From Candidatus Micrarchaeota archaeon (lineage in GTDB: Archaea; Micrarchaeota; Micrarchaeia; Micrarchaeales; CABMGC01), in assembly GCA_021817125.1 (NCBI GenBank), contig JAKAWC010000001.1, positions 12,327-76,326 on the forward strand: a DNA stretch of 64,000 nt, in the 5' to 3' direction. The notes below the pieces were generated by a model. It was given only the letters and a program-made list of their open reading frames with translations. It did no database searches and had not been told where the DNA came from. Below, piece after piece: positions 1-59,657 of this stretch (position 1 is the first letter of the stretch; the number at the start of each line of letters is the position of its first letter). The position numbers were made by a program, and so were the translations under genes.

Positions 1-26
1 TTGCTTTGCCTTTTTCTTGTCCATCA

Positions 27-755
27 TCAGAATCCCATCGTGTTTCCCTTGCCGAAGTTCTCTATCGTCCAGTCGATTACCATCTCCTTGATGGGCAGGT
101 ACTCCTCCTTCGTGAACTGCATGTTTCCGATGCAGTACTTCTTGGTGTCTATATTGGAGCAGAACATGCATTCGTAAAGGTCGAAGCTGTTGTTGACGTA
201 CATGCACTTGGACACCTTCTTTGACCACATGACTGCGAAGCTGGACGTGGTGAATGTCGAGTCCAGCACCCGGATACAAGACATTACAGCGTTATTGAAC
301 CTGCATGCGACTATCTGCTTGCAGTTCGAGTTATCCTCTGACAGGACGGCATTCTGGCAGTTGTGCGCGTTGGATGACTTGTAAACGGAGTTGCTATCGA
401 ATATGTTGTCGGATTCTGAGACGCCAATCGAATTGACATACCTGTCACCTAGGAAGTACGCTGATTCCCTCCAAAATGATAGGATATCATTCAGTGAATC
501 TATCTTCTTCGGCTTCGGAATCGTGCCTTTCTCCTGCAGCTCCGTCCCAGTTTGCATAGACATCGCAGAGACGTTGCGCCTCCTCTTCGACCATGTGTCC
601 TTCCCCGTAACGTCATCCTTGACCGGCACGGGTATGGCCAGATCAAAAGCAAACCTTTTCTGTATCTCTCCTAAGGTAAACGGGTTGTCCCTGCCAAAGA
701 TATCCTTGAACACGAAGTTTACGGTCTCCATCGCTTTTGCGGCGTCCATGTTCAT
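27..755 (-). CDS. Cysteine-rich hypothetical protein, tandem paralog 2 (downstream of HerA-like ATPase)
   Basis: 242 aa from internal ATG 755 of ORF 27..902. The ATG overlaps the upstream stop (ATGA at 752-755). Shares blocks with the 752..1486 product (VFKD-FG--NPFT, ESDNI, CIRVL-S, TSSFA--WSKKVS-CMY, ECMFCSN, KYC, VIDWTI-NFGK). 8 Cys. No family recognised. Confidence 0.6.
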   Translation of the reverse strand: MNMDAAKAMETVNFVFKDIFGRDNPFTLGEIQKRFAFDLAIPVPVKDDVTGKDTWSKRRRNVSAMSMQTGTELQEKGTIPKPKKIDSLNDILSFWRESAYFLGDRYVNSIGVSESDNIFDSNSVYKSSNAHNCQNAVLSEDNSNCKQIVACRFNNAVMSCIRVLDSTFTTSSFAVMWSKKVSKCMYVNNSFDLYECMFCSNIDTKKYCIGNMQFTKEEYLPIKEMVIDWTIENFGKGNTMGF

Positions 756-1486
756 GCCTCGAAACCCTGGCTGTTCGATTTGCCGAAATTTTTGATCGTC
801 CAGTCTATGACCTGCGCCTTGAAGGGGAGATACTGATCTTTCGTCAGCTGCGTATTGGCTACGCAGTATTTCTGCGAGCGCATGTTGGAGCAGAACATGC
901 ACTCGAACATGTCCTCGCAGTCATTGAGGTACATACATCTTGATACTTTCTTTGACCACTCTATGGCGAAGCTTGATGTCACCTGGGCGCTCTCCAGAAC
1001 ACGTATGCAGGCGGTGGAGTCGTCAGTATACGAACACCCGACAGTGTACTTGCATGCGGACAGGTTGGTGCTAAAGACGCATTTCTCCGAGCCAAAGCAT
1101 TTTGCCGACCTAAATATATAGGTACTCCCGTAGATGTTATCCGACTCGGCGACCTCTCTTGAGTCTATAGTCTTCTCCCCCGTAAAGTAGTCGATCTCAC
1201 CCCAGTACTTAGATATGTCGGCCATGGTCTTTATCGGCTTCTTCTCCTTTATCCAGGCATTCTTCTTCGAGTCTATCAGGAGGTTGGCCTGCGACATGGT
1301 CTTCGCGGCGCCGGATGAAGTCACCCACGTGAAGCCGCCAGGCGTGCGGTCGTCGTTCGTTCTTTGCGGCAGGGGCAAGCCGAAAGCAAATTTATCGAGA
1401 GTCTCCTGCATGGTGAACGGATTAGGCTGACCGAAGACGTCCTTGAAGACATAGTCCGCTATCTGCTTCGCCTGGGCCTCGTTCAT
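752..1486 (-). CDS. Cysteine-rich hypothetical protein, tandem paralog 1
   Basis: 244 aa from internal ATG 1486 of ORF 752..1549. The ATG overlaps the ATPase stop (ATGA at 1483-1486). 10 Cys in the C-terminal half. Paralogous to the 27..755 product. Confidence 0.6.
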   Translation of the reverse strand: MNEAQAKQIADYVFKDVFGQPNPFTMQETLDKFAFGLPLPQRTNDDRTPGGFTWVTSSGAAKTMSQANLLIDSKKNAWIKEKKPIKTMADISKYWGEIDYFTGEKTIDSREVAESDNIYGSTYIFRSAKCFGSEKCVFSTNLSACKYTVGCSYTDDSTACIRVLESAQVTSSFAIEWSKKVSRCMYLNDCEDMFECMFCSNMRSQKYCVANTQLTKDQYLPFKAQVIDWTIKNFGKSNSQGFEA

Positions 1487-3228
1487 ATAGCTCCCATGTC
1501 CGGGGTGCGTGCCTTGAAGACATCGTAGAACTTCCCGTTTGCATAGCACCTTACCAGGCAGTACCGGGTGTTAAGCAGCGTTATCGCCTTTATCTTCAGC
1601 TCCTCCTTGGACTCGCGCTTTTCCTCCCACTGCTTCACTACCTCCTCCGGGATGTCTATGTCAAAGTTCTTGGTCAGGATCTTCGCGTCCTCTTCTGGCG
1701 CCCTGAATATGAAATAGTTGAAAGTGTTGGACAGTATTCCCTTCAGCAGCTCCGGCTTGAGCTGGTTCAGGTACTGCACTGACAGGAATAGCGAGAGATT
1801 GAACTTCCTCGCCTCAGCCAATATCGTGACCAACGCATCGCTCTGGACCACCGACGCCTCGTCGACTATGAGTATAATCTTCTTATTGACCTGCCTGTTC
1901 TGCGAGATCAGGAAAACCTGCTGTATTAGCAGCCCGGCGATCAGCCTCGTGGCCCTCTCCCCAAGGAATATCCTTGAAAGGGAGAAGGTGGTGAGGAAGT
2001 TCTTGTTCAGTATGTCAACAAGGGCGTCGGATGACTGGCTCCCGAAGACGGGCAGGAAGTTCAGCTCATCGATCAGGGTGAGCACCGGCATGACGGCAGT
2101 CTCATAGAACTTGGTCTGGATCTCGGGGAACTCGGCGTCGAAGAAGTGGATCATGTTGTCTTCTATGTTGGGCTTCTTGAAGACCTCCGTCCTGTACTCG
2201 TACTCTGTCAGGAACTTCTTGATGTTGAAGAGCGACATCTCGTTCGCCGAGAAGAGGACGTATAGGGTATACTTCAGCACCTGTTCCATCTTTGCATTGA
2301 ACTGGCTCTCGAGCAGCATCTTGAACAGCATTATGGTGAGTTCTGTTGCTATCTTGGGGTTCGACCTCTTTGAGAATAGGTCGCACGCGCTCTTCATGAA
2401 GTCTATGTTTACTGACGGCTGTATCTGGTTGAGGTCTGCATATAACGATGCGTGGGGGTCTATCACGACCACGGCATACTCCTCCTGGAGCCGTCGTTTG
2501 ACCAGCTCCTTTACAAAGAGACCGAGGAACTTGGATTTTCCGACTCCAGTCTGCCCTATCACCATTGTATGCTTGTCAAACTCGTACGCCTTCAGCGGGA
2601 GGTAGTTCTGCGTCGCCAGGTACGGGAAGCCGTCGACCTCGAGGAAGCCTTCCTTCTGTTCGTGCGTAAAGAGCCGGGTGACGTTCTCTATCTTCAGGTA
2701 TATCGGAATCTCCTTCTTCTTGTATTTGACGCTCTGGGTCCAGTCTATCCTGTCGAGCAGGTAGAAAGGTATGGACGGAAGCGTCAGGTTTATCACTATC
2801 GGCCTCCCACTGGCCTTCTCAAAGTATAGGGAGATCCAGTTCTGGTGTATCTTCTTCAGGTGGGACTTGAAGTGCCACAGAACCTTCTTCAGCGCCCTTC
2901 CCTTCTTGAGCTCCTCCCTCTCCTTTATGTCCAATATGGACTTGTCAAGGGGCAGCGTCATCAGGGCTATGGTCATGGATGCGCCTTCCGGCACCCAGTT
3001 CTCCCTATGCTCTGGCTTGAAGATGAATGGCTGTATCCTTGTAGTCAGGTTGGAGAGGTCGCGCTTCGTGTGCAGATGGAACTCCACTTCGCTCTTCTCG
3101 AAGTTTATCTCAAGGATGAAGTCGTTGTCGTAGTCGAAAACAGCGTTGATGAATCTCTCCCAGCGTATGTCTGCGGGCTTGTCCTTCTGGATATAGATCT
3201 CGAAACTGTGCTTGTAGCCGCTAATCAT
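1483..3228 (-). CDS. HerA/VirB4-like (DUF87-type) P-loop ATPase
   Basis: Walker A GQTGVGKS, IDPHASLY, Walker B ILIVDEAS, and an ARKFNLSLFLSVQ block typical of HerA/TraG/VirB4-like ATPases. The ORF is open to GTG 3318, but those extra 30 aa are very basic, so ATG 3228 is preferred. The start remains uncertain. Confidence 0.7.
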   Translation of the reverse strand: MISGYKHSFEIYIQKDKPADIRWERFINAVFDYDNDFILEINFEKSEVEFHLHTKRDLSNLTTRIQPFIFKPEHRENWVPEGASMTIALMTLPLDKSILDIKEREELKKGRALKKVLWHFKSHLKKIHQNWISLYFEKASGRPIVINLTLPSIPFYLLDRIDWTQSVKYKKKEIPIYLKIENVTRLFTHEQKEGFLEVDGFPYLATQNYLPLKAYEFDKHTMVIGQTGVGKSKFLGLFVKELVKRRLQEEYAVVVIDPHASLYADLNQIQPSVNIDFMKSACDLFSKRSNPKIATELTIMLFKMLLESQFNAKMEQVLKYTLYVLFSANEMSLFNIKKFLTEYEYRTEVFKKPNIEDNMIHFFDAEFPEIQTKFYETAVMPVLTLIDELNFLPVFGSQSSDALVDILNKNFLTTFSLSRIFLGERATRLIAGLLIQQVFLISQNRQVNKKIILIVDEASVVQSDALVTILAEARKFNLSLFLSVQYLNQLKPELLKGILSNTFNYFIFRAPEEDAKILTKNFDIDIPEEVVKQWEEKRESKEELKIKAITLLNTRYCLVRCYANGKFYDVFKARTPDMGAI

Positions 3229-3331
3229 TAGATTCACTTTTCGTACTGAGCGTCGTTTTCGTGATATCCTATTCCTCTTTATCCATTTAAATAGGTTTTG
3301 CGGAAAGCGTAGTCTCACTGTTTATAGCCCA

Positions 3332-3793
3332 TTAGGGTCTGCGCTTGCGGTATGAGACAAGAGTTGATAGTCTAGACCTTGACGACCTGTCCTGAGGGCC
3401 ATAGACTACGCCGTGCCGCCTGAGGAGCCTCCAGATGCTCGATATGGAGAGCTTCTTCCCGGTGAACTTCCATATCAGGTGCTGCACCTTCCAGTAGGAC
3501 CAAGCGGGAGTTTTGAAGCCAAACTTTGTCGCTGGAGACCTAATGCTGCTGATGATCTTCGCAGACTCACGCGCGGAGAGCTTCGGCTTGGGACCCGGCG
3601 CCTTCTTTGACAGAAGTGCGCGCCTCCCGCCGCGCTTGTATGCGGTGAACCACCTTGTCACCGCCCTCCGGTTCATCCCGAACGCTGCGGCGATCTCGGA
3701 GACCCTCCACCCGCTCCTGCGCAGCTCGATCGCCCTGAACCTCTGCTTCTCGAGCATCTCGTGAACCAGGTGGCGGCCTATCCCCTTATCCAT
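3332..3793 (-). CDS. IS630-family transposase N-terminal DNA-binding half only (HTH protein, no DDE domain)
   Basis: 153 aa. An HTH (VSEIAAAFGMNRRAVTRW), a GPKPKL linker and a second winged-helix segment parallel the first ~150 aa of the IS630 transposase at 61063..62103 (SGRPPKL etc.). No catalytic domain follows. Confidence 0.6.
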   Translation of the reverse strand: MDKGIGRHLVHEMLEKQRFRAIELRRSGWRVSEIAAAFGMNRRAVTRWFTAYKRGGRRALLSKKAPGPKPKLSARESAKIISSIRSPATKFGFKTPAWSYWKVQHLIWKFTGKKLSISSIWRLLRRHGVVYGPQDRSSRSRLSTLVSYRKRRP

Positions 3794-4739: not shown

Positions 4740-6030
4740 TGTAAACTACCCACGACTAAAGTCGTAGGCTTTCCATCAGTTGATAAGCATGTTGCACAGC
4801 AACGTTGGGCAAACCAACTTCATCGGACAAACGAGGTCGTTTACAAAGACCCTCCCTATTGGAAATCTGGAAGGGTTTTCGGTCAAGAATATCCTTCCGC
4901 TCCAAGAGGCATTTCAATGCAATGTTCTTGCTTGCATTTCGGTCGGAGTTCACGACAACCCCGCATCCCTTGCATCTGAACAGGGCATAGTTGGAACTAC
5001 TGTGTCCTTGTTTCGCGACAGCACCGCAGTGCGAACAGAACTTGGATGTGTGCCAACTGTCCAAGACATCGAGTGTAATCTTCTTGTCAAAGCAACGGGA
5101 GGCGAGGATTTCCCTGAATTTAAAGAAAGGCATCCTCATTACAATCTTGTTGAAGTTCTTTCCCTTGCTTCTGAATCGTTTAAGGTCTTCGATGGAGATG
5201 TCGGTATTATATTTCAACGCAATCTCGGTTATCTTTTTAATCATCTGGCCGAGATTCGTCTCGACAAAGGCGTATTCGCGGGTCTTCAATCTGCGCAGAG
5301 CAGGGAGATTGTTGGAACTCTGCATCAGGGAACGCCTGTGCATCATTGTCTTCCTCTTCATCCATATATGCAGTCCGAAGTAGGTCTGGTAAAGGACTTT
5401 GCCTCTGCCAGAAAGGACGCTAACGGCGATCCTCTTTGCGTTGAAGTCGATACCCAAGACGTTCTTCTTCTGGGGCAGTTCAACCTCGTCTTTGGAAAGA
5501 TACGCAACAACCTCAAGTCTGGAAGTCAAACCATAGGTTTTGCACGTCCATCCATTCTTCATGAGATCAGAGTATCTCTGGAAATTCCTATTCTTCTTTA
5601 CGGGAACAGAAATGGGATTCTTGGAAAATACGGAGAATTTAACAAAAGGCAGGGTCATGGCAAAAGTCTTACAGTTTCGGGGGACGTTGAATTTGAGGGT
5701 AATTCCTTTCGACTTGCCTTTGCTTCTCCAGACAGAGCGTTCAATGTCGCAGACAACCTGCGAATTAAAAGAGGTGCGTTTTTTGCAGTCTGAATACACT
5801 TTCTTATGGAAATCCATGAATCTGGAGCAGAAGTCTCTCCCATCCCAAAGACGATTGAATTCGGAGGTTGCGATGGACATCACCTTCTTCAATGTAGCCT
5901 CTTTAGATGTGGTTGCACATACTTGCAATAGGATAGAGCGTTTCATATCCTTGACCATAGGTATATGCGCAATCGGTTATATAGGCATATACCCGAATTC
6001 CTCCCACGATTCAAATCGTGGGTTTCCTTC
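4740..6030 (-). mobile_element. IS200/IS605-family element carrying tnpB only (IS1341-like); ends approximate
   Basis: tnpB is flanked by related subterminal hairpins, CCCACGAT-TCAA-ATCGTGGG (6003-6022) and CCCACGAC-TAAA-GTCGTAGG (4749-4768). The latter overlaps the tnpB stop codon. Confidence 0.6.
4756..5958 (-). CDS. tnpB: TnpB (OrfB) RNA-guided nuclease-type transposon protein
   Basis: 400 aa. RuvC-I GIDFN, RuvC-II ISIEDLK, zinc finger CSHCG...CKGCG, RuvC-III NSDRNASKNI. A/T box CCTATATAACC about 25-30 nt upstream of ATG 5958. Confidence 0.85.
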   Translation of the reverse strand: MVKDMKRSILLQVCATTSKEATLKKVMSIATSEFNRLWDGRDFCSRFMDFHKKVYSDCKKRTSFNSQVVCDIERSVWRSKGKSKGITLKFNVPRNCKTFAMTLPFVKFSVFSKNPISVPVKKNRNFQRYSDLMKNGWTCKTYGLTSRLEVVAYLSKDEVELPQKKNVLGIDFNAKRIAVSVLSGRGKVLYQTYFGLHIWMKRKTMMHRRSLMQSSNNLPALRRLKTREYAFVETNLGQMIKKITEIALKYNTDISIEDLKRFRSKGKNFNKIVMRMPFFKFREILASRCFDKKITLDVLDSWHTSKFCSHCGAVAKQGHSSSNYALFRCKGCGVVVNSDRNASKNIALKCLLERKDILDRKPFQISNREGLCKRPRLSDEVGLPNVAVQHAYQLMESLRL

Positions 6031-6039
6031 AGGGTAAAT

Positions 6040-6082
6040 CTATGAAATAAAAAGAAAAGGCGCAGGGGCAGACACCCCTGCG
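6040..6082 (-). terminator. Hairpin plus T-run downstream of gene 6095..6481
   Basis: 8-bp stem CGCAGGGG/CCCCTGCG (6061-6082) sits 12 nt after the stop. On the minus strand it is followed by CCTTTTCTTTTTATTT. Confidence 0.5.
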
Positions 6083-6094
6083 TTTATTGGGCGG

Positions 6095-6481
6095 TTACTT
6101 CTTTCCCTTCTTGTTCATCATCATCCAGGCTGCCACTAGTATGATGATTACCACAATCACTATGCCGATGTAGAGCGCGGTGTTGCTGCCAGCTCCGCCG
6201 TATCCGCTTCCCCCATTGCCAGTCGCGTTCGTCGCGGTGACCGTCGTAGGCGAGACCGTCTGGTTTATTGTCGAGGAGAACTGCGGTACTGTAGTCAATA
6301 TCCCGTTTATGGTGACTGCTGTCGGTGGCGTGTACGGCACCGGTGCTATCGTCGTAATGGTCTTCTGCGTTATGAAGACTATCATCTGCGTTGGCGATAT
6401 GCCGTGTGTCTGTGCGAATGCCAGCCCTACCAGTGCTGCTCCGGCTAATGCAAGTAGCATTAATACTACATGTAACTTCAT
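6095..6481 (-). CDS. Small secreted surface protein with C-terminal GSNTALY-TM-basic anchor
   Basis: 128 aa. Signal peptide ending AFA-QT, a T-rich body, and a C-terminus GAGSNTALYIGIVIVVIIILVAAWMMMNKKGKK. A/T box at 6511-6522. Confidence 0.7.
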   Translation of the reverse strand: MKLHVVLMLLALAGAALVGLAFAQTHGISPTQMIVFITQKTITTIAPVPYTPPTAVTINGILTTVPQFSSTINQTVSPTTVTATNATGNGGSGYGGAGSNTALYIGIVIVVIIILVAAWMMMNKKGKK

Positions 6482-9566: not shown

Positions 9567-10093
9567 TGCTTGTCGCAATAGGTACCAAGAATCCGGTGAA
9601 GATACGCGCCGTGAAGAAGGCTTTCCGGAAAGCGTTCGGCGGCGGGTCTTTCTCAAGCGTGGAATCGCCATCGGGAGTCAGCCACACCCCTGCGAGCCTG
9701 GCCGAGACGCGGGTGGGGGCAGAGACCCGGGCGCGGCACGCGTTGGAGAAGACGAAGGGTGCAGACTTCGGCGTCGGGGTCGAGGGAGGGGTCCAGAAGA
9801 CCGGCGACGGGCTTATGCTGTGCGGCTATGTGGTAATAATAGGGAAGGACGGCAAAGTCGGGATTGGAGGAGGCACTGAGCTGGTCCTGCCAGGCGCTTA
9901 TGCAAAGAGAATATATCGGGGGGAGGAGCTGGGACAGATAAACGATGACGTTTCCGGCGAGAAGGGCACGAAACATGGAGGGGGGGCGGTGGGCTTCCTT
10001 ACAAAAGGGGTGGCGACACGGGAGGAGTACTTCAGGCTTGCCACAGCGTTTGCGCTTGCCCCTTTCATATCGGAGGAGGTCTATTCGGCGTGA
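9566..10093 (+). CDS. Inosine/xanthosine triphosphatase (YjjX / NTPase_I-T family)
   Basis: N-terminus VAIGTKNPVKIRAVKKAF resembles YjjX (TTNPAKI...). GTG start overlaps the upstream TAG by 1 nt. Confidence 0.65.
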   Translation: MLVAIGTKNPVKIRAVKKAFRKAFGGGSFSSVESPSGVSHTPASLAETRVGAETRARHALEKTKGADFGVGVEGGVQKTGDGLMLCGYVVIIGKDGKVGIGGGTELVLPGAYAKRIYRGEELGQINDDVSGEKGTKHGGGAVGFLTKGVATREEYFRLATAFALAPFISEEVYSA

Positions 10094-10097
10094 TAGC

Positions 10098-11462
10098 TTG
10101 AAACGGGAGGAACTGCTCTTTGTCTTGGCGATACTCGCAATGTCGCTCGCATTCGTGGCGATACTTTACTTCACCGCGGGTCCGGCTTGGGACATGATAG
10201 TGCAGTACCTGAACGCCAAGGCGATGGTGAACCCTGCACTCTACAGCACTACCTGGAGCATAAACACCGCACAGGTGGGGGGCTTGCTCTACTTTGAGAA
10301 CTTCAGGGAGCCGGTGGAGAGCGCACTGATGATTCCTCTCCTTCCACTCGGCGGCGCGACCATACCCGCATACCTTCTTGTGGAGTTCGCCCTCTTGGCG
10401 GCGGGGACGTGGAGATTTAGCAAGAGTTTTCGGATAAACACGGTCATCGCGTTCGCGGTGATGTTCAATCCGTACACGCTCTATTACCTGTTCACTTTCA
10501 ACGGCACGGACGGGCTGTCGCTCGCATTCGTGCTGCTCGGCATCGCCTCGATCGCGGACGGAAGCCCGCTCGCGGGGTTATTCCTGAGCCTGGGGGCTCT
10601 GTCGAAGTATCCGGTGCTGCTCACCCTACCTCTCGTGCTGTTGCTTGGAGACAGGGCAAAGATGACAAAGGCGGCGGAGCTATGCCTCTTGCCAATGCTG
10701 CCTTGGTTCCTATTCAACCTGGCGTTATTCGGCAACCCGTTGGGCAGTTACATCTCCGAGCTACAGATTGCCGTGTCAAATGCGCCAACCGTGCCGCTCC
10801 TTCCCGGAACGCTGCTTGCGATATTCGAGATACCACTAGCATTCCTTCTACTCGGGGCTGCGATATACGCTTTCGCGAAGCGGGGAAGGTTTAAAGGTAT
10901 AAGGGTGCGGAAGGACGTCCGGGCATACATCCTCTTTTACATGCTCCTGACGTCAGCGCTGGAGTTCGTCTTTGTGGAGTTCCACGACAGCCAGTTCACC
11001 GAGGCAAGGTTCGCATACCTACTCGTCTTCTCCCTGCTCCTCTCTGCGGCTTACATACTCGGGACCCAGGCGAGCAGACTGAAGAGGCTCAGAATTGTGC
11101 ACGCGACATTTGCGCTCTCCATCCTGCTCCTTCTCGCAGCGACGTACAACTATGCAGTGAACACGAGCTGGGTGCAGGAGTACAGCGTTCTGAATCCGAA
11201 TGCAGCGTACGTGCACGCTGCTGACGAGCTCGCTGCGCTCGGGTACGGCAACTGCAGCATCATAACCAACGGATGGCCGATGATGCTTTATTATGGATAT
11301 CCCGCGTACACCCCATACGACGCTCCGGGGGAGTATCCTGTGCTGTTCTTCAACCAGGTCGGGATAGGCGCAGGGAACATGACCCAGCTCGCAGATGCGA
11401 CACAGGTCTACAATTCGACGGAGTTCGGGATATACATGCCCAGCAACATGACGTGCCACTGA
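10098..11462 (+). CDS. Polytopic membrane protein, possible GT-C-type glycosyltransferase
   Basis: 10 or more hydrophobic helices. A LSKYP-type loop is reminiscent of PMT/ArnT-like enzymes. Start is taken at TTG 10098 just after the YjjX stop; ATG 10137 is an alternative. The upstream part of ORF 9945.. overlaps the YjjX gene and was discarded. Confidence 0.5.
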   Translation: MKREELLFVLAILAMSLAFVAILYFTAGPAWDMIVQYLNAKAMVNPALYSTTWSINTAQVGGLLYFENFREPVESALMIPLLPLGGATIPAYLLVEFALLAAGTWRFSKSFRINTVIAFAVMFNPYTLYYLFTFNGTDGLSLAFVLLGIASIADGSPLAGLFLSLGALSKYPVLLTLPLVLLLGDRAKMTKAAELCLLPMLPWFLFNLALFGNPLGSYISELQIAVSNAPTVPLLPGTLLAIFEIPLAFLLLGAAIYAFAKRGRFKGIRVRKDVRAYILFYMLLTSALEFVFVEFHDSQFTEARFAYLLVFSLLLSAAYILGTQASRLKRLRIVHATFALSILLLLAATYNYAVNTSWVQEYSVLNPNAAYVHAADELAALGYGNCSIITNGWPMMLYYGYPAYTPYDAPGEYPVLFFNQVGIGAGNMTQLADATQVYNSTEFGIYMPSNMTCH

Positions 11463-29455: not shown

Positions 29456-32400
29456 GTGGCCTTTATAAGAAAGCCGCCAACTTCAGGCGACCCGAGTGTT
29501 GGTCTTAACACACCAGCCCCGAACCATGCCGTTGGAGGCGAGAAGACAACGTATCCGACCGTTCCCATAGAGAAACTGCTAGGTCCCGAAGGAGAAAAGA
29601 TTGCGAAAGCGATAGACCAATACTATTTGGGCCAAGGCAACGAACTAGGAATCCTTGATGTTTACACGAATTCCAGATATAGGATAATCATCGACTTGGG
29701 CGAGGTGAGATATGAGGACTCTTTGGCCTCCATCGTACAGAGAATGCGCCATTCTAAGGATTGCGCCGCTAAAGGGATCACTTCCCTTGGAGCTGCAAAA
29801 GACTTCTTAGCAGCAAAGGCGGGCAGAGCTGTTCCGCCTCACAAAAATAGGAAGTGGGCTGTAAGAACCCATCCGAAAATCACAACCGAAGAGCTGCTCC
29901 AACCCGAACTCGGGCAGAAATTAGTGGATGCCCTTGACCGGGAATATGTGGCTTTGGGACTTGCCGGCGGGCTCTCTGAAGTCAGTGCCAGTGACAAGCG
30001 TAGAGTCATCATTATCGTGGATGGGAAGGCGTACGAGGAGCGAATGCATTTGCTGTCCCTGCGGATATCCAAGTCCGACACATTTAAGGAGATGGGCATT
30101 GAAGGAATCGGCACCGCTAGGGACTGGCTGGCAAAGACCGCTGGCAGAGAGGTTTATGCACAGCTTCAGGTGGATGATATACTCCAAGAGGGGATAGGGC
30201 AAAAGTTCGTGCTTGCGCTCGATGCCGCCTTGGTCGCAGCAGGCGTAGAAAATGGCCTTGCCGGTGCAAATAAGTGGACTAACGACCGGTTGATATTCGA
30301 GGTGAACGGCAAGAAGTATGCAGATACCATCAGTGCCATCATGCAAAGATGCATCCATCATTCTGAGGCATTTAGGGAACGAGGATTGACAACCGGCAGC
30401 AAAGTGCTGGACTTTCTCGCCAGAGCTGCCAACAGAGAGCCTCCCAGAAGGAGGGATACCAGTCGCATAACGAGAACGCATTCCCCCGTTGACGAATCAC
30501 TGCTCTTGGGTGAGACGGGCGAACGGTTGGCCAAACTGATTGATGCCGAATGCGTAAAGAGAGGTTTTACTGAAGGCGTATCACAGGTGTCGGTAACAGA
30601 CAAGGGAAGGATGACATTCGTTCTTGATGGAGTGACAAATGAGGACTCAATCCAGACAATAGTCTCTAGGGCGTGGAGGTTGGAGTCCTTTAGAACTGCC
30701 GGCTACGATTCTCCTAGAAAGATCAGAGATCTCATTGCGAAAAAAGCAGGGAGAACAATCTATCCGACCTTGCCATTGGAAGTATTGCTCCAGGAGGACC
30801 GCGGGAAAAAGCTTGCAAATGCTATAGAGCAGGGGTATATTGCCGCCGGAATAGAAGGGGGCATAAAAGGGGTAAACGCCCACGACCCCACATTGTTTCT
30901 CTTTGAGTTTGAAGGCGTAACATATCAGGACAGCATGAATAGGATGGTCCAGAGGGCGCAAAAATTTGAGTCTTTTAACGCTAAAGGATCTTTGAGGGCC
31001 TCGCAGCTCAGGAGACTTATGATGGAAAAGGTAGGTAAGACAAGTTACGACAAAGTTCCTGCAGAAGTATTCTTGGATCCAGTGCTCTCTCCGCTGTTTA
31101 CCGATGCAATAAATAAAGCGCTGATCGACTCCGGGATTCCAGGCGGCATAGCTGCAACGTCGGTGAGTTATGCCAAGCCCCTGGAATTTAGCATCGGGGA
31201 GAAGCACTATTCCGACAAGTTCAATCTAATAGTGCTAAGAATATATCACTGCCCCGCCTTCTCTCTATTGGGTGTCAACACCTACAAATCTGCAAAGGAG
31301 TTTCTGTTAAAAGTGGCAAAGGGAGAGGCGTTCGTCGAGAATCAACGAGCTGCAGTGGCTGGCATTAATCCTGAAAACGTTCCGAATATCCCAGACCACA
31401 ATCCAAGAGCAAACAGGAGAGTGGGTCTCAATCCCCTCCCAATCGCACTCCTTTTCGGCGAAGAACACGGAGCGGTTGCTATGGCGATAGACGAGGCATG
31501 CGTCAAGGCAGGTTCGCCGGATGGCCTAGACATGAACCTAGATGACAGGAGGCTTCTGACTATAACGTTTAAGGGCATGGTCTATACTGACACGTTCGGT
31601 CTCATCGTGACCCATCTCGCAAAGTCCGGCAGGGAACTGCCTGGAGATGTGAATACATTTGACAAAAGCAGGGCGAAGATGCTCCTGATGGTGCTTGCGA
31701 GCAGAAAACCCAAGAAGACGTTGCCAATCGATAGCCTTTTGGGCGATAAGAGGAAAGATGCCGTCTTGGCCATTGACAAAGCATGTTTAGAGCTAGGGAT
31801 AAAAGATGGAGTTGCAGGAATACTTGCAGAAAACAGAAGGAAGATCAAGATAACTCTCGGCGATGAGACATTTGAGGACAGCACCGCAGGCATAACCGAC
31901 AGAATGAGAGCCAAACCGGAGTTCAGGAAACTCGGAATCACGAGGTTTGCCCATGCTAGAGACTGGTTGATCAAAGAGGCGGGCCGTGATGTATACAGGA
32001 TCCTGACCGTGGACATTCTCTTAGGCAAGGATTGTGAACGATTTGTTAGAGCCGTTGATGATTGTCTGATAGGGTTCGGAATAGAAGGGGGCATTGCAGA
32101 GGCCAGGACCAATGTCCGAAAAACATTCAAATTTGAACTTGACGGAGAGAAGTATTCGGACAATTTTTCTGCCCTACTCCAAAGAATGATTAACTCTGAG
32201 GACTTTCAGAGACTTAACGTCAATAAATTGACTTCTGCGAGGGTCTGGTTGGCAAGTAAGATAGAAAAGGAAGTGATTCTGCCGATGCCATACGAAGAAC
32301 TCCTTGGCGAGAATGCCGGTAAAGTAGCCGAAGCATTTCATGACGCATGTTTGAAGGCAGGCATAACAGGAGGCCTTCAAGGTGCCAGTAGGTCGAGCCA

Positions 32401-34921
32401 GAAGGAGATCATCGTAGAGTTAAGCGGGCAGAAGTTTAGTGATAAGCCCGCATCGATATTGCAAAAGATGAGAAACAACCCTAAATTCATAGCAAAGGGA
32501 GTAACTACAGCAGATGAAGCCCTTACTCTTGTTATCGGGTTGGCGGGGTTGGTGCACCTCTCGACAATACCCGTGGAGCAGCTGCTTGGCCCTCAGGGTG
32601 AGGATCTTGTCCTAGCTTTGAACGATGCCTACGTCAAGCTTGGGCACAGAAGGGGAATCAGAGTTATAGGGCAGCAGGACACAACCCGTGTTTCTTTCAG
32701 TCTGAACGGAGGCCATTATGAAGATAGCATGAACGCTCTTACGAAGAGAATGATAAAATTGCAAGGATTTAGAGAGAAAGGGGTGGTGTCTGATTCTAAA
32801 GCCATGGACTGGCTTGTCGCACTTGCGGGTAGGAAGATGGCCTCTGGCGTCGAGCCTTTTATTAGAGAAAGGAGGATGCCGCTACCAAGACCAGGGAAGC
32901 TTGATGTCTCGGACCTTCTTGGACCGAACGGCAAAGAGTTGGCAATGGCGATAGACAAAGCATTGGTTGACAACGGAATCCAAAAAGGGCTGGCCGGAGC
33001 TAGCACAGATTATCGCGAACCTATCTCGTTTGCATGCGATGGCGCCAAGTATGAAGACCACCTTAGAGATATCATCCGAAGGATCTTATTGCACCCTGCC
33101 TTTAAAAGCCAAGGTATTGATTCCTCCCTAGAGGCCAAGGTCTGGCTCGCGAAAATGGCCGGAAGAGATATCGAAAGGAGAGTCGCCGCTGTTCGCGGGC
33201 AACCTGGCGCGAAGCCGCCGGTTTCACCCCTTGTCAAAGAGATAAGGGATTCTGGCTTCGATTTTGAGAAGGTCGCCGCTCGAGAGCTTTTGAATGATCA
33301 AGATGCGATAAATAAGCTCTTGGCTGCAAGAGAGAGTAAGAACTATTTCACAGCTGAAGAGATAGGTTCAGAGAAGGCAGGAGAACTGCTAGCAGCATTG
33401 ACTTCAAGCAGAAAGTTGTTCAACTTTGGAGCGGTCTACAGTTTCGACCAGAGAAAGATACTATACCTTGTCAGGTTCAATAAGAGAACACGTGCAAAAG
33501 AGGGCAAGCCAAAAGAGCATATAAAACCAAGCTGGAACGGCAATAGGGAGTACTCGTATTCGGATCTGGAGGGAATCGAGTTCGGGGAGTTCAGAGAGCC
33601 CGGCACAAAACGTCGCAGGCGAAGCACGCCAAAGGCAGCGGTCTGGCAGAATCCAGCAGCAGAACGCCAGAAAGTAGAAGTTCCTGCCATAATTAAACTG
33701 GCGCTCAACAGGCCATTGAAGCCGACAGACCTTGAGGCTCTGCAAAAGGCGATGACGGTCCATGCATCAAGGGGAATCTTCAAGGCGCTGGAAGAGGGGA
33801 TAAAGAGCAAAGATGGTAAAGAGATAGAGAGACCTATACAAGGACCTGTTCTTGACGTGGGCTCCGGCCCGAGCACGGCACCAGTCGCAAAGGCCCTTAC
33901 TCTGCCGGTTACCTGTGTGGACCTGAAGAAAGAGAGAGTTGCTGGACTCAAGGAGAACAATCTAGGCTTGAATCACGTTGCTGCAGATGCGAGGTATCTT
34001 CCGTTTAAGACTGGCGCCTTTGGAACTACTACATGGAGCTATCTTCTGGACAGTAATTGGACCAGGGGAGGCGTCCTTCTCATGGCAATGGAGATGACAA
34101 GGGTTGGTAGAGAGTCCGTAATGGAGATGCATAGGTCATATACCGGAGGAGCCAGGGCGCTCGAGTACCTCATGGAGCTGTCCGGGATAGATTACCATGA
34201 TAGAGCACCTTTAGCCAGGTTTAATTGTAGTGTACGGAGCAAGTCTATACTCATAAGGGCGCAGAAGGCGAGAGAACCGTTTATCGATGCAGGAGTATTG
34301 ACAGAAGCAGCAAGGTTCGATGCTGACAAAGAGAAGGTGTATAAGATTGCTGTGGGCGTAGATGCCAACGAGTTAGTAAGGGCATGGCTCCTGATAAATG
34401 CAAACCCGAAGGATTATTTCAGCACGAAGAGAGTGGCGACTGAGAGTATATCAAGAGTCTTTAGTGTCACCAGCGGATCTGCCCTGGCAGATAGGACCAA
34501 GACGTTGGCCTCTTTGATGCTCTCTACTGGAGTGAGTGCAACTGTTCAGCCATTCGTTGTCGCACTTAGAGTCTCGGGAAAAGGGAAGAGGAATGGCAAT
34601 GGGAGCACACTGTTCTCTATCACCAAGTACAAGAGCAAAAGAAGATTTGGCGCATCTTTCATGTTGGATTCAGATGCGAGAACCGGCACTGAGGTCATCA
34701 GGCAGCTCAGAGCATCGCTGAATGCTCTTGGCGCTTCGTTCAGGGTCAAGAAATACAAAAACAGGGGCTGGTACGGCATAAGGGTAGACGACGTTTTAGT
34801 AACGGGACTCGAAGGCAGGGATGAGGAGAGCCTTGCGCGAGACTATGCATTCAGGCGTCTCTTAAGGAAAGCTGAGAAACGCGAGCTGTCAAGCTTCGCA
34901 CAGGCGCAAATGCGGGAATAG
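29456..34921 (+). CDS. Giant 1,821-aa protein: 12 divergent tandem ~95-aa modules + class I SAM methyltransferase domain + basic C-terminal region
   Basis: Uninterrupted ORF. Repeats start at residues 37, 142, 237, 343, 439, 534, 661, 756, 850, 943, 1038 and 1149. MTase motifs VLDVGSGPS, VTCVDL, ADARYLPF (residues ~1465-1530; nt ~33833-34135). No signal peptide or TM. Confidence 0.8.
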   Translation: MAFIRKPPTSGDPSVGLNTPAPNHAVGGEKTTYPTVPIEKLLGPEGEKIAKAIDQYYLGQGNELGILDVYTNSRYRIIIDLGEVRYEDSLASIVQRMRHSKDCAAKGITSLGAAKDFLAAKAGRAVPPHKNRKWAVRTHPKITTEELLQPELGQKLVDALDREYVALGLAGGLSEVSASDKRRVIIIVDGKAYEERMHLLSLRISKSDTFKEMGIEGIGTARDWLAKTAGREVYAQLQVDDILQEGIGQKFVLALDAALVAAGVENGLAGANKWTNDRLIFEVNGKKYADTISAIMQRCIHHSEAFRERGLTTGSKVLDFLARAANREPPRRRDTSRITRTHSPVDESLLLGETGERLAKLIDAECVKRGFTEGVSQVSVTDKGRMTFVLDGVTNEDSIQTIVSRAWRLESFRTAGYDSPRKIRDLIAKKAGRTIYPTLPLEVLLQEDRGKKLANAIEQGYIAAGIEGGIKGVNAHDPTLFLFEFEGVTYQDSMNRMVQRAQKFESFNAKGSLRASQLRRLMMEKVGKTSYDKVPAEVFLDPVLSPLFTDAINKALIDSGIPGGIAATSVSYAKPLEFSIGEKHYSDKFNLIVLRIYHCPAFSLLGVNTYKSAKEFLLKVAKGEAFVENQRAAVAGINPENVPNIPDHNPRANRRVGLNPLPIALLFGEEHGAVAMAIDEACVKAGSPDGLDMNLDDRRLLTITFKGMVYTDTFGLIVTHLAKSGRELPGDVNTFDKSRAKMLLMVLASRKPKKTLPIDSLLGDKRKDAVLAIDKACLELGIKDGVAGILAENRRKIKITLGDETFEDSTAGITDRMRAKPEFRKLGITRFAHARDWLIKEAGRDVYRILTVDILLGKDCERFVRAVDDCLIGFGIEGGIAEARTNVRKTFKFELDGEKYSDNFSALLQRMINSEDFQRLNVNKLTSARVWLASKIEKEVILPMPYEELLGENAGKVAEAFHDACLKAGITGGLQGASRSSQKEIIVELSGQKFSDKPASILQKMRNNPKFIAKGVTTADEALTLVIGLAGLVHLSTIPVEQLLGPQGEDLVLALNDAYVKLGHRRGIRVIGQQDTTRVSFSLNGGHYEDSMNALTKRMIKLQGFREKGVVSDSKAMDWLVALAGRKMASGVEPFIRERRMPLPRPGKLDVSDLLGPNGKELAMAIDKALVDNGIQKGLAGASTDYREPISFACDGAKYEDHLRDIIRRILLHPAFKSQGIDSSLEAKVWLAKMAGRDIERRVAAVRGQPGAKPPVSPLVKEIRDSGFDFEKVAARELLNDQDAINKLLAARESKNYFTAEEIGSEKAGELLAALTSSRKLFNFGAVYSFDQRKILYLVRFNKRTRAKEGKPKEHIKPSWNGNREYSYSDLEGIEFGEFREPGTKRRRRSTPKAAVWQNPAAERQKVEVPAIIKLALNRPLKPTDLEALQKAMTVHASRGIFKALEEGIKSKDGKEIERPIQGPVLDVGSGPSTAPVAKALTLPVTCVDLKKERVAGLKENNLGLNHVAADARYLPFKTGAFGTTTWSYLLDSNWTRGGVLLMAMEMTRVGRESVMEMHRSYTGGARALEYLMELSGIDYHDRAPLARFNCSVRSKSILIRAQKAREPFIDAGVLTEAARFDADKEKVYKIAVGVDANELVRAWLLINANPKDYFSTKRVATESISRVFSVTSGSALADRTKTLASLMLSTGVSATVQPFVVALRVSGKGKRNGNGSTLFSITKYKSKRRFGASFMLDSDARTGTEVIRQLRASLNALGASFRVKKYKNRGWYGIRVDDVLVTGLEGRDEESLARDYAFRRLLRKAEKRELSSFAQAQMRE
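29564..33175 (+). repeat. Coding tandem repeat: 12 divergent protein modules (period 93-127 aa)
   Basis: Consensus P-x-E-x-LLG-x2-G-x2-LA-x-AID-x-A-x-V-x2-GI-x2-GL-x-G ... F-x3-G-x2-Y-x-DS ... R-M ... F-x3-GI ... A-x-DWLA-x2-AGR, read in every copy. At DNA level only short identities are present (e.g. GGAATAGAAGGGGGCAT twice). Confidence 0.75.
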
Positions 34922-50402: not shown

Positions 50403-50446
50403 AAAACTATATTAGGGTTGATGGGGGATAGGATAGTCATCTTGAT

Positions 50447-50517
50447 GGAGGCATCGTCTAGTGGTAGGATAGCGCCTTTACACGGCGCGGGCCTGGGTTC
50501 GATTCCCTGTGCCTCCA
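50447..50517 (+). tRNA. tRNA-Val (anticodon UAC)
   Basis: Manual fold: acceptor GGAGGCA/TGCCTCC, D-loop AGTGGTA, anticodon stem GCGCC/GGCGC with loop TTTACAC, T-loop TTCGATT. One T-T mismatch in the T-stem. No encoded CCA. Confidence 0.8.
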
Positions 50518-50562
50518 TTTTTCTTCTCAGAGAGCTATATGTTACATTCCTAACCAGAAGTC

Positions 50563-50570
50563 TTTATATA
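50563..50570 (+). promoter_or_regulatory. A/T box TTTATATA upstream of integrase
   Basis: 24-31 nt upstream of ATG 50594. Confidence 0.4.
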
Positions 50571-50593
50571 CTTTGCCATGCATAGATAAAAGC

Positions 50594-51775
50594 ATGGATT
50601 GGGTTGAGGATCTCATATCTAAATCTCAAGTGAAGTTGTTTCCAACGCTTCATCCGCACACTTTAGACGCCGTAAACAGGTATGTTGCGAGCAGGAGGGC
50701 AAAGGGTGTAAACGAAAAGACCATACTCAGGGACCTTTACACGCTGAGGCTTTTCTCAGACGCCTTCGGAAAGAGGGACTACGCCAAGGCCACCAGGGAG
50801 GATCTCGAGGCGGCCCTCACGAAACTTGAGCAGGGCGGCAAGTCAGAGAGCACAAAGGAGAAGGTCAGGGTCACCATAAAGTCATTCTATAAGTATGCCA
50901 TGGGGAAGGACCTATTCTATCCCGAGCAGGTCGCTTGGATAAAGTCCGTGAGGAGGAAGATGCGCCATCTTCCGGACCTTCTCGAGGAGGAGGACATTGC
51001 CACGCTGCTGGGCGCCACGAAGAACCTCCGCGATAAGGCGATAATAGCTCTCCTGTTTGATTCCGGCATAAGGGCGGGGGAGCTCATAAACATGAAGGCA
51101 AAGGACGTCGACCTTGCCAAAGAGCCGGCTCACATCATCGTGGATGGCAAGACGGGAATGAGGCAGGTGCCTATCATGTTCTCTGTACCATACCTTGCCG
51201 ATTACCTGAACGCAGAGCGGAGGAAGCCTGGCGAGCACCTGTTTACACAGGAAGGCGTCTGGAAGGATAAGAACATGCCCATAGATAACCATGCCCTGGG
51301 CACCATGCTTAGAAAGGTGGCAAAGCGCGCAGGCATAGGCAAGCACGTGCACCCCCATTTATTCAGGCATAGCAGGGCAACCTATTACGCAAACAGGCTA
51401 ACGGAGCAGCAGCTCAAGGTCTTCTTCGGCTGGGTTGGAGACAGCAAGATGGCTAGCACGTATGTCCACCTCTCAGGAAGGGACATAGACAATGCCATTC
51501 TCCGGGCAAATGGATTTAAGACGCAGGAAGTTAAGATGGCACCAAAACTGGTAGCAAAGATATGTGCTAAGTGCAAAGCCTCAAACACGATGGAAGCGAT
51601 CTACTGCACCAGATGTGGAGCCCCCCTAGATATAAGCACGGCCATGAAAATGCAGGAGGCAGAAGTGAAGGTAAACGATGCGCTCCTAGAATCGATTAAA
51701 GACCCGAAGATAATAGAGGAGATAGTGCACGCTTATCTCATGCAGCAGAAGGAGAAGTCAAGAGCACGAGGTTAG
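50594..51775 (+). CDS. Tyrosine recombinase/integrase (XerC/D-like) with C-terminal zinc ribbon
   Basis: GIRAGELINMKAKDVD (Arg I), HPHLFRHSRATYYA (H-x-x-R), ASTYVHLSGRD (Tyr), then CAKCK...CTRCG. Confidence 0.85.
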   Translation: MDWVEDLISKSQVKLFPTLHPHTLDAVNRYVASRRAKGVNEKTILRDLYTLRLFSDAFGKRDYAKATREDLEAALTKLEQGGKSESTKEKVRVTIKSFYKYAMGKDLFYPEQVAWIKSVRRKMRHLPDLLEEEDIATLLGATKNLRDKAIIALLFDSGIRAGELINMKAKDVDLAKEPAHIIVDGKTGMRQVPIMFSVPYLADYLNAERRKPGEHLFTQEGVWKDKNMPIDNHALGTMLRKVAKRAGIGKHVHPHLFRHSRATYYANRLTEQQLKVFFGWVGDSKMASTYVHLSGRDIDNAILRANGFKTQEVKMAPKLVAKICAKCKASNTMEAIYCTRCGAPLDISTAMKMQEAEVKVNDALLESIKDPKIIEEIVHAYLMQQKEKSRARG

Positions 51776-51967
51776 AAGCAAAAGCCTCGTAGAAGGTTTT
51801 TATAATGGTTTACCTTATTCTTATTCATGACAAGCGTAGGCGACTTTAACGGATTCTCTAGAGATTAAAATATTACATCTCGGATAATCGGTATCTCTAT
51901 ATTATACACCAAATCGCAAAGCAAAGCGCGTTTTATATAGTTTCGGATGTAAACGATTAACGATTAG

Positions 51968-52600
51968 ATGAGTAACAAGTTAATCGAATTGTTCGGTGAT
52001 AAACTTATCATAGCTAAAGTTAAGAAACGACTTCCACACTTATTTCAGCTTGCCGAGTTAGAGAGTTCTAGAGCGGGAAAGATAGGCATGGAGGTAGGTT
52101 CCGTAAGAGAAAAGATAATCAGTTCCCTTCTCATATATAAGTTTGGAGAAGAAAACGTCGAAACAGAACTGCCTATTACTGAACCAGAAGTGGACGTGAG
52201 GCTTTTCGGATCATCTATATCAATAAAAACAATAACTGGCAAAGAACCGGTAGGGGTTAAGCTTATTTGGACTGTCGATGCAGAAAAAGCGCGGCAATTC
52301 CTAGAAAGTTGGAAACCTAATTGTAATTTAATTTTAGTACAAGTTAATTGGAATGGAATCGGAGGAGTTTATTATATATCAACTGAAACGCAACTTCAAG
52401 TGTTCAGGAAGCTAGGACGTGAGAGGTATATCAAACTACCAAAGGCGGGTACGAACCCGAGAGGCGTTGAGATCTCTAAAGAAGCATTGAAGGCGTTAAT
52501 TGATGACAAGGACACAAAGGCTATTATAGTTGAGTGGAAAAAAGATAGTGTAGATTATAATCCATATAAGAGATGGGTTGATCTGTGGAAGGAGGATTAA
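51968..52600 (+). CDS. Putative type II restriction endonuclease (family not recognised)
   Basis: 210 aa, AT-rich, immediately upstream of the methylase (TAA then GTG). Candidate PD-(D/E)xK-like segment EPEVDVRLFGSSISIKT. Confidence 0.45.
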   Translation: MSNKLIELFGDKLIIAKVKKRLPHLFQLAELESSRAGKIGMEVGSVREKIISSLLIYKFGEENVETELPITEPEVDVRLFGSSISIKTITGKEPVGVKLIWTVDAEKARQFLESWKPNCNLILVQVNWNGIGGVYYISTETQLQVFRKLGRERYIKLPKAGTNPRGVEISKEALKALIDDKDTKAIIVEWKKDSVDYNPYKRWVDLWKED

Positions 52601-53545
52601 GTGTCTGACCAACCAAAGAAAAACGGCTCACAGACAAGTGCTTTCGGTAGTCCAAGCAGAGCTAATCACGATTCTTCTAAGTTTTATAGCGGCAGATTAT
52701 ACGAAGGCCTACCTAAGGCAAAAGAAGACGTTATTTTTGAAGAAAATAAGATACCTACAAACAGACTCAACAAGATATTCTGTTCATCAGCAGAGATTAT
52801 GAAAGAGTTGCCCGATAATAGCGTGCACCTGATGGTTACGTCACCACCTTATAATGTAGGTAAATTGTATGATAAAGAACTAACATTGGAGGAATACAGA
52901 GGATTCCTAACTAGAATTTGGAAGGAAGTTTATCGTGTTCTAGTTCCGGGTGGAAGAGCATGCATAAATGTTGCTAACTTAGGAAGGAAACCATATATAC
53001 CACTGCACACTTTTATAATAGAAGACATGCAAAAGCTAGGTTTCTTGATGAGAGGCGAAGTTATTTGGGAGAAAGGTGCTAGTGCGAGTTCTTCTATTGC
53101 ATGGGGCTCGTATTTGTCTGCTAAGAACCCTGTTTTAAGAGATGGACATGAATACATCCTGATATTCTCTAAAGAGTCATTTACGAGAGGTATAAAGGAA
53201 GAGATGAAATCTACAATAACAAAGGAGGAGTTCATAGAATATACAAAGAGCATCTGGTCTTTCAATGCCGAGTCTGCAACAAGGATAGGACATCCAGCAC
53301 CGTATCCAGTAGAATTGCCATCTAGATGTATTAAACTCTATACATTTGAGAATGAGGTCGTTTTAGATCCATTTATGGGAAGCGGAACAACTGCCGTTGC
53401 GGCGCTAATGCTCAGCAGGAAGTTTGTAGGTTATGACGTAGAGGAGAAGTACATCAAACTTGCCGAGAAGAGGATAGAATCGGTTAGAGACACGTCCAAG
53501 CAACAGAAAATTACTAAAGCGGAGATTTACGAGCAGCCACAATAA
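52601..53545 (+). CDS. DNA methyltransferase, beta-class (N4-cytosine or N6-adenine)
   Basis: Motif IV MVTSPPYNV precedes motif I DPFMGSGTTAVAA. 314 aa. Confidence 0.85.
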   Translation: MSDQPKKNGSQTSAFGSPSRANHDSSKFYSGRLYEGLPKAKEDVIFEENKIPTNRLNKIFCSSAEIMKELPDNSVHLMVTSPPYNVGKLYDKELTLEEYRGFLTRIWKEVYRVLVPGGRACINVANLGRKPYIPLHTFIIEDMQKLGFLMRGEVIWEKGASASSSIAWGSYLSAKNPVLRDGHEYILIFSKESFTRGIKEEMKSTITKEEFIEYTKSIWSFNAESATRIGHPAPYPVELPSRCIKLYTFENEVVLDPFMGSGTTAVAALMLSRKFVGYDVEEKYIKLAEKRIESVRDTSKQQKITKAEIYEQPQ

Positions 53546-53682
53546 GTCCTTTCTATTAACGCTATTTTAGTTAGTCTTCTCTTTCTGCCCTTCCACTTTC
53601 TTTTTCTCCTTTCTACCTTCCTCCTTCTCGAAGACGTTTACCGCCGTTTTGCCTGCCTGTCGCGCGGAGCGCCCCACTGGTT

Positions 53683-55846: not shown

Positions 55847-55850
55847 TTTT

Positions 55851-59656: not shown

Positions 59657-59657
59657 G

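Follow-up and report, generated by a model that had tools for sequence, protein, structure and literature searches.

What does an ATPase of the HerA/FtsK superfamily work on, or with, when the genes coupled to it encode proteins that fit no known family? This question is raised by the left end of a 64,000-nucleotide stretch of DNA (the window) from a Candidatus Micrarchaeota archaeon (contig JAKAWC010000001.1, positions 12,327 to 76,326 of the forward strand), where an ATPase gene is followed by two complete paralogous genes and the start of a third. An earlier note on this DNA had described a HerA/VirB4-like ATPase coupled to tandem cysteine-rich paralogs in an operon leaving the window. We find that the ATPase and its partner form a real, conserved and previously undescribed module, and that the partner is a new family. 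The genes of the locus are the following.

1483..3228, minus strand: DUF87 ATPase gene, 581 aa, start ATG at 3228 and stop at 1485-1483 (open reading frame and translation)
752..1486, minus strand: partner paralog A, 244 aa, ATGA overlap with the ATPase stop
27..755, minus strand: partner paralog B, 242 aa, architecture like that of A, ATGA overlap with the stop of A
1..27, minus strand: 5' start of a third partner paralog, (M)MDKKKAKQ..., leaving the window (sequence)

Inspection of the sequence places exact ATGA overlaps at 1486-1483 (ATPase/A) and at 755-752 (A/B), in agreement with the translational coupling proposed earlier. The two paralogs, described before as about 243 residues long, are 44-45% identical and have a VFKD.FG..NPF block in common, with 10 cysteines in A and 8 in B. 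The ATPase starts at ATG 3228 and not at the upstream GTG 3318, and the profile of its homologues aligns from position 3. The third gene opens after the stop of B (29-27) with an ATG at 24-22 and reads MDKKKAKQ, as the earlier note had it, but a second in-frame ATG at 27-25 overlaps that stop (TGATG) and may be the actual start; because the orthologous third gene in the closest related locus (L002, described below) has the same TGATG arrangement, the protein may begin with MMDKKKAKQ. Its N-terminus resembles the MDEKKAKE start of L002 genes three to seven.

We scanned one genome per GTDB species and analysed the best 80 of the 357 loci with a confirmed relative. An ATPase homologue lies directly upstream of the partner, on the same strand, in 77 of the 80 loci; of the other three, two are contig edges, and the third is a contig carrying a pair of scattered additional copies, whose genome has an array as well. 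The distance from the ATPase stop to the partner start lies between -11 and +20 nt in 74 of 78 loci, and the pairwise distances of the ATPases correlate with those of the partners (Pearson 0.79). Because the arrangement recurs in many unrelated genomes, it is far beyond what chance would produce. Around the pair, no third gene is conserved in the 80 loci beyond lineage-specific upstream regulators, which are AraC/GyrI-like (Cass2; gene cluster 2, 33 members) in Bacillota loci and TrmB in some Saccharibacteria loci. In most loci the flanking genes have housekeeping functions: UvrB and GatCAB or, in Saccharibacteria, PolA, polyprenyl synthase, sigma70 and DnaG. The pair is a conserved chromosomal two-component module, made up of an ATPase and its dedicated partner, and we found no published description of it in the literature on HerA, FtsK or DUF87 in Patescibacteria, Saccharibacteria, Micrarchaeota or DPANN. 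The partner set that the earlier note could not recognise is conserved, and neither of the two outcomes that it had named as counting against its reading occurred, these being a match of the paralogs to a well-characterised family and a linkage confined to this one genome.

The ATPase is classed by sequence as a P-loop ATPase of the DUF87/HerA-FtsK superfamily. It matches Pfam DUF87 (PF01935, 36.9 bits, cutoff 23.2, E 5e-9) and, over residues 210-267 only, TrwB_AAD_bind (PF10412, 27.7 bits, cutoff 20.5, E 2e-6); the HerA-like class given earlier is upheld, but the label 'VirB4-like' finds no specific support. A family-specific N-terminal domain of about 200 residues, which matches no known domain, is followed by the P-loop domain with the two Walker motifs.

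2533..2556, minus strand: Walker A, GQTGVGKS, residues 225-232 (VIGQTGVGKSKF); G225, G228, G230 and K231 invariant in an alignment of 66 sequences
1858..1875, minus strand: Walker B, ILIVDE, residues 452-457; D456 and E457 invariant in the same alignment

Further motifs are VVIDPHASLY, ILIVDEAS and EARKFNLSLFLSVQY. When the 66-sequence profile was compared with the PDB, the best solved relative was the anti-phage HerA 8xau (E 4e-6; also 8wiv), followed by EssC (4nh0; FtsK/SpoIIIE-family chain), all of these matches being confined to the Walker A region and one C-terminal motif. Among PADLOC models the best match is mad8 (E 3e-10), and HerA models follow at E 9e-5 or worse. We detected no transmembrane segment in the ATPases of the window, L004 and L087, in which no 19-residue Kyte-Doolittle window exceeds 1.6. 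The ATPase homologues are basic (median isoelectric point 8.8) and the partners acidic (median 5.0), and in several lineages the ATPase tail is Lys/Ala-rich or ends in ...SRKK. The Saccharibacteria and Bacillota ATPases (L016-L085; for example L039:7767-9998 and L024:4619-6499) carry an extra C-terminal tail of 45-180 residues, which the window ATPase lacks, and most such tails close with a conserved motif, roughly L-x-D-[IL]-[LM]-x-S-Q-S-[ST]-S-R-[KR]-K.

The partner is the less familiar half of the pair. The family has no match in Pfam, NCBIfam or PADLOC, and none of 121 members reaches a Pfam model at E <= 0.01, in line with the earlier statement that the paralogs could not be placed. One weak match exists in PHROGs (phrog_15341, unknown function, E 2e-4), the partner profile finds nothing better than E 0.3 in the PDB, and the names given to members in their source records are all 'hypothetical' or 'uncharacterised'. 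The family is nonetheless large: an exhaustive hidden Markov model search recovers 1382 clusters at E <= 1e-3, of which 412 reach E <= 1e-10, whereas a word-indexed search recovered just 7 relatives. Paralog B matches the partner profile at E 7e-86. The partner has no signal peptide and no predicted transmembrane segment. One family member of 308 aa (P0028) has 68 extra N-terminal residues that by eye resemble the start of a U32-type peptidase; this extension may be an artificial fusion, made by gene calling or assembly, and not a real fusion of domains.

The AlphaFold model of paralog A built from the 121-sequence alignment reaches a predicted local distance difference test score (pLDDT) of 91.8 and a predicted template modelling score of 0.87; the one built from an 8-sequence alignment was unusable (pLDDT 37). 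According to the former, the partner is a β-solenoid of unassigned family, as had been guessed from the sequence. The parts of the protein are listed here.

Paralog A, residues 1-100: small N-terminal alpha/beta domain (AlphaFold model)
917..1186, minus strand: paralog A β-solenoid, residues 101-190, with strands every 6 residues (DSSP on the model)
Paralog A, residues 190-215: Cys-bearing segment of lower model confidence (AlphaFold model)
Paralog A, residues 216-233: C-terminal helix (AlphaFold model)
863..901, minus strand: paralog A putative metal site, Cys196-x2-Cys199-x8-Cys208 (conservation)
132-170, minus strand: paralog B conserved Cys codons (conservation)

In the model, DSSP assigns fourteen short strands at 6-residue spacing to residues 101-188, with the hexad consensus S-x-N-[VI]-[YF]-x. 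The profile autocorrelation over residues 100-212 is highest at lag 12 (0.24), followed by lag 6 (0.18), lag 24 (0.16) and lag 18 (0.145). The periodic segments reported in the earlier note are thus real, but the period of the partner sequence is 12 residues and not about 13. The cysteine counts of 10 and 8 also stand; family-wide, however, only three positions are conserved among the 121 members (C196 100%, C199 100%, C208 99%). Because just 3 of the 8-10 cysteines are conserved and the others are lineage-specific, the cysteine ladder is not a feature of the family. Position 201 is His in 84% of the 121 members, Asn in the window copies, and Asn or Gln in the Micrarchaeota copies. The partner probably holds a Cys3(His) metal site, to judge from this conservation. 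Other conserved polar residues are D116, R162, D189, N211 and Q213.

The only structural neighbours that Foldseek found for the partner model are left-handed β-helix proteins, with weak matches to γ-carbonic anhydrase/CcmM, GlmU and LpxD (E >= 2e-3, template modelling score <= 0.21, root mean square deviation >= 8 Å). Membership in the canonical hexapeptide left-handed β-helix group was rejected at the sequence level: none of the 121 members matches Pfam Hexapep, and the hhalign probabilities for the partner with CaiE and LpxA of E. coli are 0.4% and 0.2%.

The pair is carried by Micrarchaeota (DPANN), by Patescibacteria, which are also called the candidate phyla radiation (CPR), and by metagenome-assembled genomes (MAGs) of gut Bacillota. 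By record titles, 5 of the 80 loci are archaeal (Micrarchaeota and 'uncultured archaeon'), 5 belong to Microgenomates-group CPR, 30 to Saccharibacteria and other Patescibacteria, 38 to gut MAGs labelled Clostridia, Bacilli, Mycoplasma or Tenericutes, and 2 carry other labels. The closest relatives of the window locus are labelled Candidatus Micrarchaeota. The archaeal proteins are 45-47% identical to those of Microgenomates, compared with 32-36% for the other bacterial groups; their nearest bacterial relatives are the Microgenomates proteins, which implies that the pair was transferred across domains, between DPANN and CPR. Its presence is patchy and not universal. In several other Saccharibacteria the pair sits in the interval between UvrB and GatC, whereas in Southlakia epibionticum ML1 this interval (SEML1_0540 to SEML1_0537) holds other genes and the pair is absent from it (PMC10633639 Table S1).

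We found no relatives of the partner in 50,697 GenBank phage records or 72,556 PLSDB plasmids, and none of either the partner or the ATPase in 2.9 million IMG/VR contigs. An origin of the pair in mobile elements or viruses was rejected on these grounds (the plasmid search used the partner as query, the IMG/VR search both proteins). The earlier note had called the region accessory, which holds in the sense of patchy presence but not in the sense of mobile-element cargo, given the lack of phage, plasmid and viral-contig matches.

Most genomes have a single partner gene, and tandem pairs or triplets occur in a few CPR genomes (L057, L076). In the closest relative of the window, the Micrarchaeota MAG JOPF168, seven tandem partners follow the ATPase (L002) and two copies are dispersed (L007). 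Window paralog A shares 73% identity with the first L002 gene (ratio of nonsynonymous to synonymous substitution rates, dN/dS, 0.13) and window paralog B 68% with the second (dN/dS 0.135), whereas paralogs within one genome are just 41-53% identical; across positional orthologues of the window and L002, dN/dS is about 0.10-0.13. Because the positional orthologues are collinear, the paralogs divergent and dN/dS low, the array is old and has been maintained under purifying selection. The operon was said to run off the left edge, and the seven-gene array of L002 bears this out; the window operon very probably continues with more partner copies to the left of position 1. Contigs break at these arrays in each of three assemblies: at the left edge of the window, within paralog B in L001 (the sole other contig with paralog A), and within the ATPase in L002, which begins there. 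This pattern is consistent with contig ends induced by repeats. No match was returned when paralog B, with either of two possible starts, was looked up as an exact protein sequence. About 4.5 kb beyond the seven-gene array, L002 carries a ParE toxin gene and a DUF7557-type gene upstream of it (9737-10230).

Proteins of about 530 aa with two solenoid domains also occur, from Micrarchaeota wherever the source names an organism. L086 has ten tandem two-domain genes, which amount to 20 domain copies in about 16 kb, and five are present in L087 (Candidatus Anstonella stagnisolia). After the last of these genes, each locus has a convergent gene for an ATPase of the same family, which is 31% identical to the window ATPase over the ATPase domain (E 1e-45); this type has no transmembrane segment and ends in a long tail that is acidic and then Lys/Ala-rich. 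Profiles of the one-domain and two-domain versions fail to align at the ATPase N-terminal domain and at the first ~40 residues of the partner, and the joint divergence of these two regions may be taken as weak and indirect support for a contact between them. Between the two-domain genes of L087 stand two genes for proteins of about 330 aa (2401-3396 and 5111-6097, minus strand); each protein has two AsnC-type helix-turn-helix (HTH) units and ligand-binding domains, an architecture like that of NirDL/AhbAB-type siroheme decarboxylases or of regulators.

What could such a module do? ATPases of the HerA/FtsK/VirD4 kind are ring-shaped, nucleoside triphosphate-driven translocases, mostly of DNA, and HerA rings bind their operon partner (NurA, Sir2 or DUF4297) on the N-terminal face. 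By analogy, we tentatively favour a ring motor with a docked β-solenoid subunit that would act on DNA, either in accessory maintenance or against invaders. The ATPase would presumably be a hexamer, as in its family, and the partner would dock on this motor as NurA, Sir2 and DUF4297 do on HerA, likely through the ATPase N-terminal domain. The motor would most likely translocate or remodel DNA, and the β-solenoid, probably with a Zn or Fe-S centre, would serve as a regulatory, target-recognition or effector subunit. In the Micrarchaeota arrays, one motor may serve several alternative partners. An accessory role in genome maintenance or against invaders is suggested because the distribution is patchy and crosses domains, and the basic ATPase, the Lys-rich tails and the acidic partner are hints of a motor that acts on DNA. 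A number of points weigh against this reading. No nuclease, NADase, protease or pore domain can be recognised in the partner, which hence is no evident defence effector, and the flanks of the loci are housekeeping genes rather than defence islands. Amplified partner arrays are, to our knowledge, without precedent among HerA-effector systems. The DNA substrate is argued from family analogy and charge, with no specific DNA-binding domain, and the physical contact of the ATPase and partner through their N-terminal domains is one that we infer. As to the metal, the conserved cysteines lie at ladder positions of the solenoid, where their role could be purely structural, and the putative site loses His201 to Asn or Gln in the Micrarchaeota copies.

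Rather doubtful, in our estimate, is a reading in which the pair is a machine of a kind not yet recognised in Patescibacteria, DPANN and gut Bacillota MAGs, and in which the motor handles the solenoid proteins and not DNA: a soluble FtsK/HerA-type motor would load, unfold, assemble or deliver metal-bearing β-solenoids, and the Micrarchaeota arrays would then serve host interaction, with clients diversified to as many as 20 domain copies per locus. Another reading, which we consider unlikely, is substrate delivery, in which an ATPase like a type IV coupling protein (T4CP) or EssC would recognise the N-terminal block and hand the β-solenoid proteins to an export channel encoded elsewhere, so that the arrays would supply exported effectors or surface proteins in the contact between episymbiont and host. 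The carriers are mostly host-dependent lineages with small genomes, one ATPase accompanies many paralogous 'clients' with a conserved N-terminus, and the ATPase matches TrwB_AAD_bind and TraD/EccC models, with EssC 4nh0 among its top PDB matches; in addition, thousands of VirD4-like homologues of Patescibacteria are not located near virB4, and their exaptation 'cannot be ruled out' (PMC12102498). However, the ATPase has no transmembrane anchor or FHA domain, no conserved membrane or channel gene lies nearby, and no type IV secretion system (T4SS) genes were found near the archaeal loci inspected. The partners, for their part, have no signal peptide, a dN/dS of ~0.13, up to 45% identity across domains and invariant cysteines of a cytoplasmic type, and the usual 1:1 coupling of the genes argues for a stoichiometric complex rather than an enzyme with its cargo.

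Two further explanations were considered. If the β-solenoids stacked end to end like bactofilins, the ATPase would assemble, anchor or disassemble a structural polymer and the paralogs would form hetero-polymers. This fits the flat repeat architecture with terminal capping elements, the existence of two-domain tandem fusions, and the many divergent paralogs kept under purifying selection in one genome, but we regard it as quite unlikely: the modelled solenoid is capped at either end, by the N-terminal domain and by the C-terminal helix, which speaks against open-ended stacking, the partner shows no Pfam similarity to bactofilin or other cytoskeletal families, and we know of no member of the HerA/FtsK family that remodels protein filaments. 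It is very unlikely, we think, that the pair is an enzyme with its activator, where the partner would be a divergent left-handed β-helix enzyme of the γ-carbonic anhydrase or acyltransferase type with a metal site at an interface, and the ATPase would activate or assemble it. The top Foldseek matches, γ-carbonic-anhydrase-like proteins and the β-helices of GlmU and LpxD, also end in a C-terminal helix, and the conserved D116, R162, D189, N211 and Q213 together with the Cys3(His) site could suit such an enzyme; these matches are nonetheless weak by every measure given above, the Hexapep and hhalign comparisons fail, and the period is 12 and not 18. The docked motor acting on DNA is, tentatively, the explanation that we prefer.

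The surroundings of the locus in the window are those of an archaeal chromosome, which encodes a threonyl-tRNA synthetase whose editing domain is of the archaea-specific type, as well as SdhA, malic enzyme and subunits of an A-type ATPase. The three genes upstream of the ATPase encode an HTH-only protein of 153 aa, a 273-aa open reading frame with no Pfam match, and a TnpB/Cas12f-like protein. The first of these is as follows.

3332..3793, minus strand: HTH-only IS630-type gene, 153 aa, with HTH_23/HTH_32/HTH_29 and without a DDE domain (Pfam)

The earlier description of this gene as an IS630-type HTH-only gene is accurate, as it aligns to the N-terminus of the complete IS630-type transposase (HTH and DDE_3) encoded at 61063-62103 on the plus strand (E 8e-6). 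The identity is only 21%, so the gene is a remote relative lacking the DDE domain rather than a damaged copy of that insertion sequence. The TnpB/Cas12f-like protein (400 aa, 4756-5958, minus strand; TNB domain E 2e-13) is encoded ~1.4 kb upstream of the ATPase start. Further along the window, a probable integrated element occupies 50446-60000, where a tRNA-Val at 50446-50518 precedes genes for a tyrosine integrase (50573-51775) and a DNA methylase (52601-53545) and for a second, unrelated DUF87/FtsK/AAA_10 ATPase (55851-58010); in parts of this region the GC content goes down to 0.43-0.46. We rejected the second ATPase as part of the system, as it shares just Walker-motif similarity with the first (E 0.07). 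An open reading frame of 1821 aa at 29456-34921 on the plus strand has no Pfam match at E <= 1e-4, and after it, on the opposite strand, lie genes for a GT4 glycosyltransferase and a type I phosphodiesterase.

A large part of microbial diversity belongs to CPR and DPANN, whose lineage-typical genes mostly have no known function. The module adds a new class of partner to the HerA/FtsK motors, and in Micrarchaeota the partners rank among the larger multigene families of a ~1-Mb genome (~16 kb in the single locus L086). The gene pair is a concrete target for biochemistry, and for genetics in the tractable Saccharibacteria. It may also account for some of the 'orphan VirD4-like' ATPases of Patescibacteria (PMC12102498).

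How the module compares with known systems can be considered from either of its two proteins. Like the left-handed β-helix proteins (γ-carbonic anhydrases, GlmU, LpxA and LpxD), the partner has a six-residue strand spacing followed by a C-terminal helix, but it differs from them in its period of 12 instead of 18, in having no sequence or profile similarity to them, and in a template modelling score that stays at or below 0.21. The type VII secretion ATPases EssC/EccC resemble the module in that an FtsK-like ATPase domain adjoins a variable number of small paralogs. Here, however, there is a single ATPase domain with no FHA or transmembrane segment, genes of the EsaA/EssA/EssB type are missing from the vicinity, the partners do not resemble the WXG100 or LXG substrates of that system, and the scores with the EccC models of NCBIfam are 21.7 and 14.4 bits, where the cutoffs are 346 and 509.

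The VirD4/TraD coupling proteins have in common with the ATPase the TrwB_AAD_bind domain, which is above its gathering score, and SXT_TraD is the best NCBIfam match. The TraD models as a group give the ATPase <=35 bits against cutoffs of 366-647, and unlike VirD4/TraD it has no N-terminal membrane anchor; we found no T4SS or relaxase among the conserved neighbours and no partner in plasmids. Similar to most T4CP homologues of Patescibacteria, the genes of the window family are located away from a virB4 cluster. In that group, 5,713 VirD4-like homologues were reported, of which just 148 lie near virB4, and the rest are possibly 'exapted for other functions' (PMC12102498).

Among HerA systems, the module is neither HerA proper (NCBIfam NF040819 helicase_HerA, 12.9 bits against a cutoff of 970; N-terminal domain not recognised as the HAS-barrel domain of HerA) nor the anti-phage HerA (NF042943 HerA_antiphage, 19.3 bits against 800). 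No NurA or Mre11/Rad50 neighbours occur in the window or the 80 related loci, and Pfam and PADLOC detect no Sir2 or DUF4297 effector domain in the partner, which is a β-solenoid with a Cys site and not a nuclease or NADase. The module further differs from the HerA systems in that the ATPase gene comes first, the partner is amplified to 7-10 genes per locus, and the carriers are centred on CPR, DPANN and gut Bacillota MAGs. What it has in common with HerA systems is the FxKH..I.G.tGsGKS and ViD.H Walker-A region and the E.RK....l..Q C-terminal motif. As in HerA-NurA, Sir2-HerA and DUF4297-HerA, a superfamily ATPase adjoins one dedicated partner in a tightly coupled operon, and by this analogy the module would work most like the HerA-partner systems.

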